Shown piece after piece: positions 4,132 to 55,333 of a stretch of 64,000 nt of DNA. Position 1 is the first letter of the stretch. Each line of letters starts with the position of its first letter. The DNA comes from Escherichia phage vB_EcoM_ASO1A, in sequence record MZ726791.1. One strand, given 5' to 3'. The notes under the pieces were generated by a model. The model did not search any database and was not told the DNA's origin. It saw only the letters and a program-made list of their open reading frames with translations. A program made the translations under genes and the position numbers.

Positions 4132-4804
4132 TGAAGTGCTGTGTCATGCTTACGACTTACATCCTCATGAGTTAGGTCTTGATTCCTGTGTATGGACTCC
4201 AGAACAGTGTAGGGATTTTGAAGACACTGCAAGAGAAGTTGTATGTTCACTCGAAGAGTTCCACACATCAGAGCCAATTGTGAATGTTGTAGATAAAGAG
4301 ACTGGACAAACTATAGGTGTAAGTCGTGATAGCTTAGTCATAGTCAATAAAGACCTTGTAGAAAAAGGTAACCTCATCTTAGCAGATATTGATGGTGTTC
4401 TTACAAATTTTAATCACGAAGATTGCTCAACGGAATTGACTGATGGGTCATTCTCACAGTACACTAATCTTCTTGACTCTGTAAGAGCAAAACCAACGTA
4501 TGTCTTTAGTATTATTGATGCAATTGCTAATCATGCTGCCATTGGACTCTTGACAGCGAGAGGTGAATCTCAGAGAATACCTACTGAGATGTTTTTAAGG
4601 CACAATATAGAGCATGATTACTTGCTTTTTATGCGTGGTTTTGGAACTAACTCTATAAGTGTAGAAAGTTTGAAAGTGAGGATGATTCAGTCTTGCATCC
4701 TGCCTTACTTTAATATAGTATGTTTTATAGAAGACACAGAGAAGAATGTGCAGAAGGTGAACAGAATCCTTCCACACATTAAAACCATGTTAGTTAAACA
4801 TTGA
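4109..4804 (+). CDS. HAD-superfamily hydrolase-like protein
   Basis: DIDGVLT (DxDGx motif I) and LLTARG motif; overlaps upstream gene by 23 nt. Confidence 0.4.
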   Translation: MKKLKKSDEVLCHAYDLHPHELGLDSCVWTPEQCRDFEDTAREVVCSLEEFHTSEPIVNVVDKETGQTIGVSRDSLVIVNKDLVEKGNLILADIDGVLTNFNHEDCSTELTDGSFSQYTNLLDSVRAKPTYVFSIIDAIANHAAIGLLTARGESQRIPTEMFLRHNIEHDYLLFMRGFGTNSISVESLKVRMIQSCILPYFNIVCFIEDTEKNVQKVNRILPHIKTMLVKH

Positions 4805-43095: not shown

Positions 43096-51111
<8,016 letters not shown>

Positions 51112-51113
51112 TA

Positions 51114-52286
51114 ATGGCAGTAGGTGAAATTCAAATTAGTGCCTTGCCTCAAGCAGCCTTACCAATTGACCTTAGTGATATCTTCCATCTTAAGCAGGGT
51201 ATTGAGGATAAGAGGTGTACTCTTGAGCAATTACTTGCTCCACACGCAAGCCTAAGAAATAACCCTCATGGTGTTACTAAAACACAAATTGGTTTAGATA
51301 ATGTTATTAATGCTCTTCAGTTAGTCGCTGCAAATAACTTATCAGATATTGTTAATGTAGCTGAGGCAAGAGCAAATCTACAGATTATGTCTTCAGAAGA
51401 GGTTAATAACCTTGTCCAGCAACATATCAAGGACAAGAGTAACCCACACAATACAACTAAGGCACAGGTTGGTTTAAGTAATGTTCAGAACTGGACAACA
51501 TCTAATCTGTATAACGAAGATGCAGATAAGTATGCTACAGCAAGAGCAGTAAATAACTTGTACAAGGCTGTTCAGGCTTCTTATCCAGTAGGTACTATCC
51601 ATCTTTCTATGAACTCTGCAAACCCTTCTACATACTTAATTTGTGGAGGTACTTGGGAGTTAGTTTCAAAAGGTAGGGCATTGGTTGGCTATGACTCTGA
51701 TACAAGACCAGCAGGTTCTGTATTTGGTGCTTCAACTGTCACTTTGTCAGTTAATAACATGCCTCAACACTCCCACTCTGTGTCTCTTAGCGGTGGTGGT
51801 CACACTCATAATGCAACTGTGTCAATCTCAGTTTTTGATTATGGGGCTAAGACTACAAACTCTTTTGACTATGGGACAAAAGCTACTAACACAACTGGTA
51901 ACCATACACACAGTGTGTCAGGTAACACAAGCACCAATGGTACTCACAACCATGATGTGTATCCTAGAGAAAATGATGGTACTGGTAATGCTGTAGCTGA
52001 CTCTGATGGTGGTGGTGCAAGAAGGACATCAAGGACTTCTAGTGACGGTGCGCACTCACACAGCTTTAACGTCACATCTGGTGCATCAGGTGACCACAGC
52101 CACACGGTTGGTATTGGTGCTCACAGCCATACAGTTGGTATTGGTTCACACACGCACAGTGGCACTGTAACAGTTTCTTCTTCTGAACATACACATAGTG
52201 GTAATACAAATAGTGTTGGTGGAGGTCAGGCAGTTAATATTGAGCAGCCATCCTTCGTACTGTATGTATGGCAGAGAACAGCTTAA
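51114..52286 (+). CDS. tail fibre protein with His-rich (HxH) C-terminal tip
   Basis: TKTQIGLDNV and TKAQVGLSNV fibre-type repeats; C-terminal HSHSVS, GAHSHTVGIGAHSHTVGIGSHTHSG; ends VWQRTA. Confidence 0.65.
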   Translation: MAVGEIQISALPQAALPIDLSDIFHLKQGIEDKRCTLEQLLAPHASLRNNPHGVTKTQIGLDNVINALQLVAANNLSDIVNVAEARANLQIMSSEEVNNLVQQHIKDKSNPHNTTKAQVGLSNVQNWTTSNLYNEDADKYATARAVNNLYKAVQASYPVGTIHLSMNSANPSTYLICGGTWELVSKGRALVGYDSDTRPAGSVFGASTVTLSVNNMPQHSHSVSLSGGGHTHNATVSISVFDYGAKTTNSFDYGTKATNTTGNHTHSVSGNTSTNGTHNHDVYPRENDGTGNAVADSDGGGARRTSRTSSDGAHSHSFNVTSGASGDHSHTVGIGAHSHTVGIGSHTHSGTVTVSSSEHTHSGNTNSVGGGQAVNIEQPSFVLYVWQRTA

Positions 52287-52332
52287 TTTCTTTACAGGGG
52301 CTATAAAGCCCCTTTTAAGAGGAAAATATATA

Positions 52333-54687
52333 ATGGCAGATTACAAGTTGAGTGAATTAAACTCAATCGATACAATCCGTTCAGATGACCTTCTTCATGT
52401 CAGGGTTAAAAAGAGACCTGAAATGTTGGGTGATGAAGACCGTCGAATGACCTATCAAGATTTCTTAGCATCTTTCAAGCTTGAAAGATTTGTTCAGATT
52501 GCTGGTAGTACTATGACGGGTGACTTAGGGATTGTTAAGTTACTCTATGGTGGCAAGGCAGTATTTGACCCAACAGGTTCTTCTGAGATTACTATTGGGG
52601 ATGTTTTAAAGACTTTTAAAATCAACGCAAATGGCCTTAAACTAACTATCGCAGATGCTTCAAGGTCAGCAACTGTTTATCATACTCTGAATAAACCAAG
52701 CCCTAATGAACTTGGTATGAGAACTAATAAAGAGAATGATGCAAGATACTCAAAATTAGCTGTAAATAATACCTTTAGAGGTACTCAAGCTATCCTCTCT
52801 GACAATGAAGCGCTCATTATTAAAAATATCACTCAAGGTGCCCCACTCTATCTTCGTGGTCAAGATGCAGATGGTACTAACAGATGGTATCTAGGTAATG
52901 ATAATAGGGGCACAAATAATCTTGTATTGAAGAATGTAAAGTCTGACGTTTCAATTGCTATTTTAGAGAATTTGGTGACAGTCAACAGAACTCTTCAAAT
53001 TGCTGGCCAAGTTCAGCCTTCAAGTTTTGCTAACTTAGATGCTAGGTATTTTACCCAGACAGCAGCTAATCAGAGATTTGCGCAGTTAGCTGGTAATAAC
53101 ACTTTTACTGGTACTAACACTTTCTCTAATTTTGTTGCTAAGAAGAATGCTGAAGCCATCACTCTACAAAATGTGGACACTGCCCCCTCTTTATATATTC
53201 GAGCAAGAAAGTCAGATGGGAATTATAAGTGGTACATTGGTAATGACGGTGATGAGAACATTTTAAAAATCTATAACTATCTAACAAAAACACAAGTCTC
53301 ACTAGGTAACACTATTGCCATGAGCAAAACAGTTCAAATTGATGGTCAAGTACAACCTTCTGATTGGACTAACATTGATTCTAGATATATTCCGGCAGCC
53401 ACTTTGAGTAATCTCCCTAAACTTAATGTGTCTAATACTTTCACAAATGTGCAAACTATTGTATCTAACAACGAGGGTTTGGTATTAAGGAACTTGACAC
53501 AGGGGCGGCCACTATATATCCGTGGTGTTGATACTGAGAATGTTTCTAGATGGTGGTTAGGTGTAGGTGGTTCAAACTCTAATGTGGTAACACTTAACAA
53601 CAACTATTCTAACACTAAAATCTCACTTGGTGGCTCATCAGTAATGACTAACAAGAGCTTAGCTATTACTGGTCAAGTACAACCTTCTGACTTCTCTAAC
53701 TTAGATGCTAGATACTATACCCAAGCTGCCGCAAACGCAAGATATATGCTTGCAAGCATCACTGGTTCGGCTTCTGAAGCAGATGGTGGTGGTGGTGTTG
53801 CATGGGATGCAAAAACAGGTCTTTATAAGGTTACTAACACCACTGGACGGTATTCTTCACTTGTATATCACATGTTTTTAGGGACTGGTTCTACACCGTC
53901 TGCACAATTAAAGTTTTCGTTTAAAAATGGTGGGATGTGGTATAGAGCATCAAGAGATGCCTATGGCTTCGAAGTTAATTGGTCTAAAGTTTACACGGAA
54001 GCACAAAAACCAACCCCTTCAGAGATTGGTGCATACACTAAAGCTGAAACTGACCAGAAAATTGCAACAGCAATTAGTGACTCTACAGACCTTAATAAAA
54101 TCTATCCAGTAGGTATTGTAACGTGGTTTAACAGTAATGTTGACCCTAACACAGCACTACCTGGGTTAACTTGGACGTACCTGAATAATGGTGTTGGTAG
54201 AACTATCAGAATCGCAGCAGCAAACGGTTCAGATGTTGCTACAACTGGTGGTTCAGACTCTGTGACGTTAGCTGTTGGAAACTTACCATCACATACCCAT
54301 AGTTTCTCTGCTACCACTTCATCTTTTGATTATGGTACGAAGAACACTAATAGTACTGGTGCGCACACTCACTCAGTTAGTGGTACTGCTGCAACTTCTG
54401 GGCAACACGCACACAGAATTTCACAGGGTGACAACGCTAACGTTCCATCAGGTAGGGTCGCATCTTCGAACTCTGCTCAGACTCATGTTGGATGGACTGA
54501 AAATGATGGTGCTCACACCCACTCAGTTAGTGGTACTGCTGCATCTGCTGGGCAACATGCTCACTCTGTAGGCATTGGTGCTCACAGGCACACAGTCAGT
54601 GGTAACACTGGTGGTACAGGTTCTGGGTCAGCATTTAGTGTTACTAACCAGTTCTATAAGTTAATGGCTTGGGTGAGAACTGCTTAA
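52333..54687 (+). CDS. long tail fibre protein with paralogous His-rich C-terminal tip
   Basis: ATG 52333 after GAGG RBS; repeated QIAGQVQPS segments; C-terminal GAHTHSVSGTAA x2 and HAHSVGIGAHRHTVSG; ends AWVRTA. Confidence 0.65.
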   Translation: MADYKLSELNSIDTIRSDDLLHVRVKKRPEMLGDEDRRMTYQDFLASFKLERFVQIAGSTMTGDLGIVKLLYGGKAVFDPTGSSEITIGDVLKTFKINANGLKLTIADASRSATVYHTLNKPSPNELGMRTNKENDARYSKLAVNNTFRGTQAILSDNEALIIKNITQGAPLYLRGQDADGTNRWYLGNDNRGTNNLVLKNVKSDVSIAILENLVTVNRTLQIAGQVQPSSFANLDARYFTQTAANQRFAQLAGNNTFTGTNTFSNFVAKKNAEAITLQNVDTAPSLYIRARKSDGNYKWYIGNDGDENILKIYNYLTKTQVSLGNTIAMSKTVQIDGQVQPSDWTNIDSRYIPAATLSNLPKLNVSNTFTNVQTIVSNNEGLVLRNLTQGRPLYIRGVDTENVSRWWLGVGGSNSNVVTLNNNYSNTKISLGGSSVMTNKSLAITGQVQPSDFSNLDARYYTQAAANARYMLASITGSASEADGGGGVAWDAKTGLYKVTNTTGRYSSLVYHMFLGTGSTPSAQLKFSFKNGGMWYRASRDAYGFEVNWSKVYTEAQKPTPSEIGAYTKAETDQKIATAISDSTDLNKIYPVGIVTWFNSNVDPNTALPGLTWTYLNNGVGRTIRIAAANGSDVATTGGSDSVTLAVGNLPSHTHSFSATTSSFDYGTKNTNSTGAHTHSVSGTAATSGQHAHRISQGDNANVPSGRVASSNSAQTHVGWTENDGAHTHSVSGTAASAGQHAHSVGIGAHRHTVSGNTGGTGSGSAFSVTNQFYKLMAWVRTA

Positions 54688-54766: not shown

Positions 54767-54961
54767 ATGCCTACAATCCTAGCAATTCTTCTAAAAAATC
54801 TAGGTAGCTTCTTCTGGAAACTCATTTTATCCCTTCTAAGTGAATACATGATTGAGAAAGTGTTCTTTAAGCTTGCAAGATACCTTGCGAGTAAAACAGA
54901 CACACCTATTGATGATGAGTTCGTAGATAACTTAGAAAAAGCTTTTAAGGGGGAGAAATAA
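54767..54961 (+). CDS. small membrane protein (holin or fibre-assembly candidate)
   Basis: 64-aa ORF with N-terminal hydrophobic helix ILAILLKNLGSFFWKLILSLL. Confidence 0.35.
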   Translation: MPTILAILLKNLGSFFWKLILSLLSEYMIEKVFFKLARYLASKTDTPIDDEFVDNLEKAFKGEK

Positions 54962-55333
54962 ATGAAGTGGCTAGAGGAAGCTTTTAAAAATAATATTGGT
55001 GCAATTGTAGTTGGTATTTTTAGTGTTATTGGGATGTATACCACGATGCAAGTTTCAAGTGGTAAACAAGAAGTGTCTGTCACAACAAAGTTACAGCAGT
55101 TGGATAATTATTCCAAAAGTAACTATTCAGCTATTCGTGATTTACAGTCTGACATGAGACTGATTCAGCTAGGGATGGAGAACCAGAAAGTTCAGTTAGA
55201 GAATGTTAAGGGTGAAAACGCAAAACTTACCAAAACTCTTGATAAATTCTCTGACAGTGTGAACAATCTGGCTCAATCAGTATCAGCCCTCCAAGCTATT
55301 ACTGAGAAGAACACAAAGAATACTGAAAAATAA
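54962..55333 (+). CDS. membrane-anchored coiled-coil protein
   Basis: 123-aa ORF; TM helix IGAIVVGIFSVIGMYTT then heptad-like region. Confidence 0.4.
   Translation: MKWLEEAFKNNIGAIVVGIFSVIGMYTTMQVSSGKQEVSVTTKLQQLDNYSKSNYSAIRDLQSDMRLIQLGMENQKVQLENVKGENAKLTKTLDKFSDSVNNLAQSVSALQAITEKNTKNTEK

Follow-up and report, generated by a model that had tools for sequence, protein, structure and literature searches.

Felix O1-like phages are employed to type Salmonella and are candidate agents of biocontrol and therapy. On both fibre proteins of Felix O1, gp37-like C-termini were noted in its genome paper (2010), and the VpaE1 paper (2015) reported homology of the T4 gp37 adhesin with the C-termini of gp74 and gp75, which are variable, in contrast to the conserved N-termini. 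According to the Sf14 paper (2025), that phage has two tail fibres, the longer of which carries a distal tip like that of T4 gp37. By cryo-electron microscopy (cryo-EM) with AlphaFold fitting, the Bas63 paper (2025) delineated a collar, a needle of HxH motifs and a head on both the short tail fibre (STF) and the long tail fibre (LTF), gave counts of the di-histidine motifs and located the variability in the tips. Gp37-type tips on both fibres of this phage group are already known. Here we analysed a window of 64,000 nucleotides (nt) from Escherichia phage vB_EcoM_ASO1A (MZ726791.1), in which two fibre genes occupy positions 51114-54687. The two proteins, P1 and P2, are very probably the STF and LTF of a VpaE1-like Felixounavirus, each carrying a T4 gp37-type receptor-binding module at its end. 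What is added is modest: exact domain and cassette coordinates, a prediction of nine metal sites in one fibre and six in the other, recombination evidence from four allele combinations, a near-identical cassette in VpaE1 and T4, and one cassette present in both fibre genes of Salmonella Felix O1-type phages. The value lies in annotation and a sharper recombination map, not in discovery.

The region is occupied by two open reading frames (ORFs), for which we follow the STF/LTF nomenclature of the Bas63 cryo-EM study (2025):

51114-52286, + strand: P1 (gene 1), STF gene; ORF of 390 amino acids (aa), assigned by PHROG 2097 (tail fibre, E 5e-137) and synteny.
52333-54687, + strand: P2 (gene 2), LTF gene; 784 aa, start taken from annotated orthologues, full-length match to PHROG 4277.

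In a database nucleotide search, this 3.6-kb region matched 238 phage records, nearly all of them from phages that infect Felix O1-type hosts (Escherichia, Salmonella, Shigella, Citrobacter), and VpaE1_ev035 matched at 96% nt identity with 100% of the region covered. The source phage is a VpaE1-like Felixounavirus, that is, a Felix O1-like myovirus. P1 shares 97% aa identity with VpaE1 gp74 and is its orthologue; judged by synteny and domain plan, its counterparts are gp76 in Felix O1 and gp26 (STF) in Bas63. P2 is the orthologue of VpaE1 gp75 (63-64% aa identity overall) and is 95% identical to the LTF of ASO1B at the aa level; the same two lines of evidence give Felix O1 gp77 and Bas63 gp27 (LTF) as its counterparts. 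For P2, a GTG start at 52198, produced by mechanical ORF extension and overlapping gene 1, was dropped in favour of the ATG at 52333, which agrees with VpaE1 ORF075 and eight further annotated relatives. Antisense and out-of-frame ORFs within both fibre genes are without support and were disregarded. The idea that the "VpaE1_ev" records are laboratory-evolved host-range variants was also rejected, as they are natural isolates from infant stool.

The assignment of the tips is carried by homology to the crystal structure of the T4 gp37 tip (PDB 2XGF). In phmmer searches of the PDB, P1 aa 146-362 matched chain positions 18-228 of this structure (E 3.1e-28), and P2 aa 647-763 matched positions 92-218 (E 1.5e-18). 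The original prediction, made from the letters alone, had noted comparable HxH repeats in T4 gp37; beyond that likeness, both tips turn out to be sequence homologues of the solved structure. The alignment spans both needle arms and the terminal strand in P1 and in P2, so that collar, ascending and descending arms and C-terminal return strand all have T4 counterparts, as do the conserved FDYGTK and HSVGIGAH motifs; neither head sequence is related to that of T4. All seven HxH motifs of T4 (883, 915 and 929 in one arm; 966, 980, 989 and 998 in the other) align with HxH motifs in P1 by MAFFT, and P1 has two more, at aa 230 and 359, one per arm and adjoining the collar. In P2, six of the seven T4 sites are aligned, with no equivalent of 998. 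These counts fit a longer needle in the short fibre, predicted to hold nine sites against seven in T4, and a shorter needle in the long fibre, a point that the Bas63 paper (2025) also makes about its own LTF needle.

Family searches support the same plan. The collar of P1 scores 63.9 bits against Pfam Gp10_C (cut-off 27), with PDB matches to T4 gp10. Pfam finds in P2 three gp37_trimer stretches, a gp37_C domain and a Phage_fiber repeat at aa 724-736. The shafts do differ, as had been proposed: that of P1 is short, and that of P2 comprises the three gp37_trimer repeats followed by the gp37_C domain, which resembles Mu fibre protein S.

Nine HxH motifs were counted in P1 (aa 219, 230, 264, 278, 314, 328, 337, 346 and 359) and six in P2 (aa 654, 678, 692, 728, 742 and 751), all in the C-terminal parts, and they hold 18 of the 24 histidines of P1 and 12 of the 16 of P2. 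Among the other ORFs of at least 100 aa in the window, none has more than two. Both fibres thus end in related HxH-rich domains, as first claimed. Of the strings quoted then, GAHTHSVSGTAA does occur twice in P2 (aa 676-687 and 726-737) together with HAHSVGIGAHRHTVSG, and the W-x-RTA terminus is common to both proteins (VWQRTA in P1, AWVRTA in P2); the string given for P1 was one letter wrong and reads GDHSHTVGIGAHSHTVGIGSHTHSG, with GDHSH instead of GAHSH.

Such runs might be taken for incidental low-complexity or compositional repeats with no metal role, a reading for which only the repetitive look of the sequence speaks. It is effectively refuted. Composition-preserving shuffles gave a mean of 1.4 HxH motifs for P1 and 0.3 for P2, and none of 20,000 reached the observed count of either whole protein. 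In the alignment, the motifs and the iron ligands of 2XGF correspond one to one, and the motifs are invariant across genera while adjacent residues vary. In alignments of the STFs and LTFs of ten Ounavirinae (window, VpaE1, ULIM9, Felix O1a, wV8, bumzen, ASO1B, BPS17S6, Moogle and Sf13), the invariant histidines, which belong to the collar-proximal motifs outside the cassettes, are 219/221, 230/232, 314/316, 328/330, 337/339, 346/348 and 359/361 of P1 and 654/656, 678/680, 742/744 and 751/753 of P2. Moreover, H929 and H931 of T4 gp37 have an iron-binding role, and the H929A and H931A substitutions are lethal (PMC6957217).

We mapped the domain limits onto P1 and P2 from T4 gp37 by MAFFT alignment, using the published boundaries of the collar (D10; 811-881 and 1010-1026), stem (882-931 and 960-1009) and tip (932-959) (Islam et al. 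2019, PMC6957217). The exchangeable cassettes are marked by low identity among relatives. The resulting features are as follows:

51576-51764, + strand: P1 collar, N-terminal part (gp10/gp11/gp12/gp37-D10 type), aa 155-217; Gp10_C, T4 811-881.
51765-51953, + strand: P1 ascending needle arm, aa 218-280, HxH at 219, 230, 264 and 278; 2XGF, T4 882-931.
51879-52094, + strand: P1 exchangeable distal-needle and head cassette, aa 256-327.
51954-52034, + strand: P1 predicted head, about aa 281-307; T4 tip 932-959, inside the hypervariable cassette.
52035-52241, + strand: P1 descending needle arm, aa 308-376, HxH at 314, 328, 337, 346 and 359; T4 960-1009.
52242-52286, + strand: P1 C-terminal strand returning to the collar, aa 377-390 (ending EQPSFVLYVWQRTA), and stop; T4 1010-1026.
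52753-53742, + strand: P2 shaft, three repeats ending GQVQPSxFxNLDxRY; Pfam gp37_trimer in three stretches, E 1.7e-59.
53743-54087, + strand: P2 middle globular domain, aa 471-585; Pfam gp37_C (E 9e-18), Mu fibre protein S (PDB 8JU3, E 2e-21).
54097-54288, + strand: P2 collar, N-terminal part, aa 589-652; Gp10_C at 23.9 bits, likeness to the P1 collar, T4 811-881.
54289-54414, + strand: P2 ascending needle arm, aa 653-694, HxH at 654, 678 and 692; 2XGF alignment.
54373-54555, + strand: P2 exchangeable distal-needle and head cassette, aa 681-741.
54415-54495, + strand: P2 predicted head, about aa 695-721; T4 tip 932-959.
54496-54642, + strand: P2 descending needle arm, aa 722-770, HxH at 728, 742 and 751; 2XGF, Phage_fiber at 724-736.
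54643-54687, + strand: P2 C-terminal strand returning to the collar, aa 771-784 (ending NQFYKLMAWVRTA), and stop; T4 1010-1026.

At the DNA level, the P2 shaft repeats form a family at 52999, 53338 and 53665.

A receptor-binding tip had been placed at the C-terminal end of each protein. The gp37-type tip stands, and the contact part moves: by homology, the chain would fold back on itself, with the head as a hairpin turn in the middle of the His-rich region (about aa 281-307 in P1 and 695-721 in P2) and the W-x-RTA end returning to the collar. Both the chain reversal and the inward orientation of the histidines rest on the 2XGF alignment and the published Bas63 models. On this basis, each fibre would presumably be a homotrimer in which a gp10/gp12-like collar follows the shaft. 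From the collar, the chain would run outward as one arm of a six-stranded needle, form a small head at the far end and return along a second arm, so that the final ~14 residues (..W-x-RTA) re-enter the collar. The HxH motifs would face the needle axis, where three chains could contribute six histidines around one metal ion (Fe2+ in T4), giving up to nine predicted metal sites in the short fibre and six in the long fibre. These metals would rivet a thin needle, and the head, not the histidines, would touch the receptor, most likely the core sugars of lipopolysaccharide (LPS). We infer trimer formation, metal binding, receptor identity and the division of labour between the two fibres by homology to the described systems.

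Several observations weigh against this assignment or its details. The Gp10_C match of P2 (E 8.8e-5) lies under the curated cut-off of 27. The two extra motifs of P1 and the missing seventh motif of P2 are without structural precedent in T4. A single-sequence AlphaFold2 monomer prediction of P1 aa 142-390 (51537-52283) reached a predicted local distance difference test (pLDDT) of 35.7 and a predicted template modelling score (pTM) of 0.17, too low for use. Assembly is a further difficulty. Both T4 gp37 and lambda Stf depend on a gp38/Tfa chaperone. A tblastn search of T4 gp38 against the window (64 kb of the ~88-kb genome) gave a best E of 4.8, and the ORFs at 54767-54961 and 54962-55333, which follow the LTF gene where T4 has its gp38-type chaperone gene, matched no tail-fibre-assembly family in Pfam or PHROGs. 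With no gp38/Tfa homologue detectable in the 64-kb window, assembly must differ from that in T4 and lambda; the Sf14 fibres are apparently one protein each, and that phage encodes no homologues of the Mu fibre chaperone (Sf14 paper, 2025).

The last such observation comes from the Bas63 virion, in which the STF head rests on the tail sheath, between domains D2 and D3 at ring 10 (2025). The short-fibre tip could on this evidence be mainly a latch that docks the folded fibre on the sheath. We consider this improbable, since the STF varies most in its head cassette (37% mean identity), whereas Felixounavirus structural proteins, the sheath included, are mostly within ~5% of those of Bas63. A conserved docking partner does not predict hypervariability and receptor tracking does, although the two roles are not mutually exclusive.

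The two tips are homologous to each other. BLASTP aligned P1 with P2 at 38% identity over 190 aa (E 4e-28), which bears out the homology originally proposed and enlarges its extent: instead of the last ~130 residues, it covers about 200-235, from ~aa 155 to 390 of P1 and from 589 to 784 of P2, collar included. Regional alignments show where the likeness lies. The collars of P1 and P2 are 38% identical (z score 12.9) and 27% identical to that of T4 (z 6.7 for P1 and 1.7 for P2), while the heads have no detectable similarity to each other (z 0.1) or to T4 (z ~0). Since the collars are closer to each other than to T4 and the heads are dissimilar, the scaffolds (collar, collar-proximal needle and C-terminus) appear to be an old paralogous pair, conserved across Ounavirinae, and the heads unrelated inserts. 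The idea of duplicated and diverged tips consequently applies to collar, proximal needle and C-terminus, and not to the heads. No third copy of the tip was found by tblastn elsewhere in the 64-kb window.

Instead of a duplication within the Ounavirinae lineage, the two tips might have been taken up independently from different donors. The cassettes are demonstrably mobile: the VpaE1 LTF cassette is a close relative of T4 gene 37, the LTF cassette of the window has relatives at 69-73% identity in ST32-like phages, and the tip family also occurs in lambda Stf, T-even gp37 and many others. We nevertheless regard independent uptake as unlikely, because the two scaffolds are nearer to each other than to T4 by the scores given above, both fibres share the W-x-RTA end, and both scaffolds are conserved in Felixounavirus and Mooglevirus. 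Duplication of the scaffold remains our preferred account of its origin.

Conservation among the ten relatives separates scaffold from cassette. Mean pairwise identity is 91% in the N-terminus of the STF and 89% in that of the LTF (P2 aa 1-140), 83% and 86% in the collar, 72% and 80-87% in the proximal needle arms, and 90% in the C-terminal strand of both, but only 37% in the distal needle and head of the STF and 25% in those of the LTF. A similarly low value, 27%, is found in the hypervariable LTF mid-domain (aa 471-560). Identity drops and recovers at two conserved elements that flank the cassette, FDYGTK..HxH upstream of it (5') and the HSVGIGAH His-box downstream (3'). A comparison with the tips of related phages had been suggested as a check; run here, it shows hypervariable tip cassettes on conserved scaffolds.

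Sliding nt identity among close relatives reveals how the cassettes move. In the LTF gene, ASO1B matches the window at 100% across 53400-54116; identity then drops to 28-47% in 54387-54551 and is back at 90-95% beyond 54582. In the STF gene, ASO1B is 87-100% identical upstream of 51893, 33-59% over 51894-52080 and 83-95% downstream. ULIM9 has a like LTF cassette (84-100%) and a different mid-domain (30-55%), and in VpaE1 both mid-domain and cassette differ. With respect to the mid-domain, ULIM9 and VpaE1 share 28-55% nt identity with the window and ASO1B 98-100%. All four combinations of mid-domain allele and cassette allele hence occur among the window, ASO1B, ULIM9 and VpaE1, which requires recombination between mid-domain and cassette. 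The original suggestion of a recombination module is borne out by these relatives, whose flanks are 95-100% identical and whose cassettes are unrelated. On these alignments, the distal-needle and head cassette is clearly exchanged by recombination, and the crossovers would fall in the regions coding for FDYGTK..HxH and HSVGIGAH. For each of the two cassettes, the matches in the database are discontinuous, for that of P1 with 25 records at 91% or more and the next at 50%, and so bear the signature of discrete alleles. Because the P2 mid-domain (53743-54087) equals the head in hypervariability and changes alleles independently of it, the long fibre may have a second recognition module here.

The cassettes would travel beyond closely related phages, both between phage families and between fibre genes. 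The VpaE1 LTF cassette (L001 9205-9474) is 94% identical (253/270 nt) to nt 2700-2969 of T4 gene 37 and 92% identical at the protein level, and the flanks of this block share 41-42% nt identity. The block extends from the FDYGTK codons to slightly beyond the HSVGIGAH codons, and from its sequence looks like a recent exchange between Felixounavirus and Tequatrovirus. Such a T4-like cassette may explain the E. coli B-type specificity of VpaE1. The P2 cassette of the window has ~51% identity to T4, and its 69-73% relatives are ST32-like phages of 52-53 kb. In Felix O1a, one cassette is found in both fibre genes (207 nt at 87%, L005 1815-2021 versus 4265-4471), as it is in OPT-SAL01 (198 nt at 79%, L012 1814-2011 versus 4265-4462). 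In these two phages, the heads of the two fibre proteins are nearly identical and the collars only distantly related. A common cassette in both fibre genes of Salmonella Felix O1-type phages points to exchange between the two loci. This repeat between STF and LTF cassettes was not found in the window or in its E. coli relatives ULIM9, ASO1B, wV8 and bumzen, and the two fibre genes of the window share no DNA repeat longer than 35 nt.

Taking these cases together, the cassettes of both fibres could belong to a common, chaperone-independent pool that moves between STF and LTF and between phage families (Felixounavirus, Tequatrovirus and ST32-like phages), with the His-box and FDYGTK codons acting both as metal ligands and as recombination micro-homology. 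We put this forward tentatively, as an idea that falls a little short of being favoured. If true, needle length (six to nine metal sites) and head identity would be re-programmable at defined junctions, allowing Felix O1-like phages to be retargeted.

The P2 cassette also contains an internal repeat. Positions 54346-54414 and 54496-54564 (+ strand), in the ascending and descending arms, form a 69-nt direct repeat with 84% identity, each copy encoding ..GAHTHSVSGTAA.SGQHAH. This repeat suggests a recent internal duplication or conversion within the cassette.

As the two head segments have no detectable similarity, two specificities are plausible, and the phage probably reads two different surface structures. 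VpaE1 uses truncated LPS core as receptor (VpaE1 paper, 2015), and relatives of Felix O1 are generally described as LPS-dependent. Since the STF is shared with VpaE1 at 97% (~93% in the head cassette) and the T4-like LTF head is not, we infer the same STF ligand as in VpaE1 and a different LTF ligand; with mid-domain and head cassette both being other alleles than in gp75, the LTF receptor would be expected to differ from that of VpaE1. Alternatively, both fibres could bind the same receptor, the duplication serving redundancy or avidity. Felix O1a and OPT-SAL01, whose fibres carry nearly the same head cassette, show that an identical-head configuration is viable and perhaps selected in Salmonella phages. 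For the window, however, we judge this quite unlikely given the dissimilar heads (z 0.1), the lack of any DNA repeat above 35 nt between the two fibre genes and the different distribution of the two cassettes among relatives. Two different ligands thus remain the better account for this phage.

Host range is set by these two fibres, and the cassette limits give junctions for engineering at ~aa 256-327 of the STF and ~aa 681-741 of the LTF. Because both fibres carry exchangeable head cassettes, differing host ranges are to be expected in the window, ASO1B, ULIM9 and VpaE1, and the cassette differences would explain why such near-identical phages should differ in this respect.

The architecture can be placed among the described fibres. 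In T4, the module sits on a kinked fibre of four proteins; in the window, its carrier is a fibre made of one protein and joined directly to a simple Mu-like baseplate. Bas63 (Felixounavirus) and Sf14 (Mooglevirus; gp52 and gp53) belong to the same genus or subfamily and share gene order and domain plan with the window. Compared by published description, the Bas63 STF has seven HxH motifs and its LTF six plus an HHxH, whereas the STF of the window has nine and its LTF plain HxH motifs only. The difference in STF count lies in the cassette, as a bumzen-type STF cassette is without the two distal ascending motifs. No chain of PDB 9NDY matched P1 or P2 in a PDB search. Lambda Stf belongs to the same His-rich tip family (match to lambda orf-314). 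T-even adhesin shuffling follows the same logic: in the classical model for those phages (Tetart et al. 1996, 1998, as cited in PMC3157838), variable recognition segments are exchanged within, or close to, the short conserved motifs on either side of them. In contrast to lambda and the T-even phages, exchange in the group of the window also takes place between STF and LTF genes within a single genome, and no chaperone or adhesin gene accompanies the cassette. With the T4 baseplate fibres gp10 and gp12, P1 shares the collar, through its likeness to Gp10_C and to gp10 chains in the PDB; no gp12 structure matched P1 at E<=1 in the PDB search, so that the shared collar, via gp10, is the sole link. 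The "short fibre" P1 is a truncated version of the long-fibre plan and not a gp12 homologue.

The neighbourhood of the fibre genes is conserved. Upstream of P1 lie a 489-aa Baseplate_J wedge protein, a 287-aa second wedge protein and a 100-aa protein; downstream of P2, two small ORFs are followed by thymidylate synthase (td) and dihydrofolate reductase (frd) on the opposite strand. The same order is present in nine annotated relatives, and the synteny is common to VpaE1, Felix O1, wV8, Moogle and Sf13. The minor features are:

50809-51111, + strand: 100-aa protein directly upstream of P1; PHROG 4141, without assigned function.
52296-52316, + strand: intergenic hairpin GGGGCU-AUAA-AGCCCC followed by UUUU (U4); -16.1 kcal/mol, z -2.7.
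54767-54961 and 54962-55333, + strand: small ORFs after P2 (64 and 123 aa); conserved, PHROGs 402 and 4038, function unassigned.

The 100-aa protein is probably the long-fibre platform equivalent to Bas63 gp25, on the sole basis of gene order: the series of 489-aa, 287-aa and 100-aa proteins, STF and LTF fits gp23, gp24 (285 aa), gp25, gp26 and gp27 of Bas63. The 123-aa ORF has an N-terminal hydrophobic segment and a coiled-coil-like tail, and carries a "holin" annotation in some relatives.

The intergenic hairpin was not called by a strict terminator scan; in wV8 and Moogle, its counterpart carries an annotation as rho-independent terminator. The hairpin of the window is a candidate weak terminator or attenuator that could reduce long-fibre relative to short-fibre expression, and LTF occupancy is incomplete on Bas63 virions (Bas63 paper, 2025). 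A sigma-70 promoter scan around the fibre genes found 14 sites against 11.7 expected, which is background level.

Finally, a third HxH-bearing virion protein, absent from the original prediction, is encoded at 47438-48061 (+ strand). This 207-aa central spike ("puncture apparatus") is ~99% identical to Bas63 gp021 (PDB 9NDY chain G) and has one such motif, H188/H190 in ..NEHTHHYYW.., which the Bas63 and Sf14 papers (2025) read as an iron site at the spike tip.

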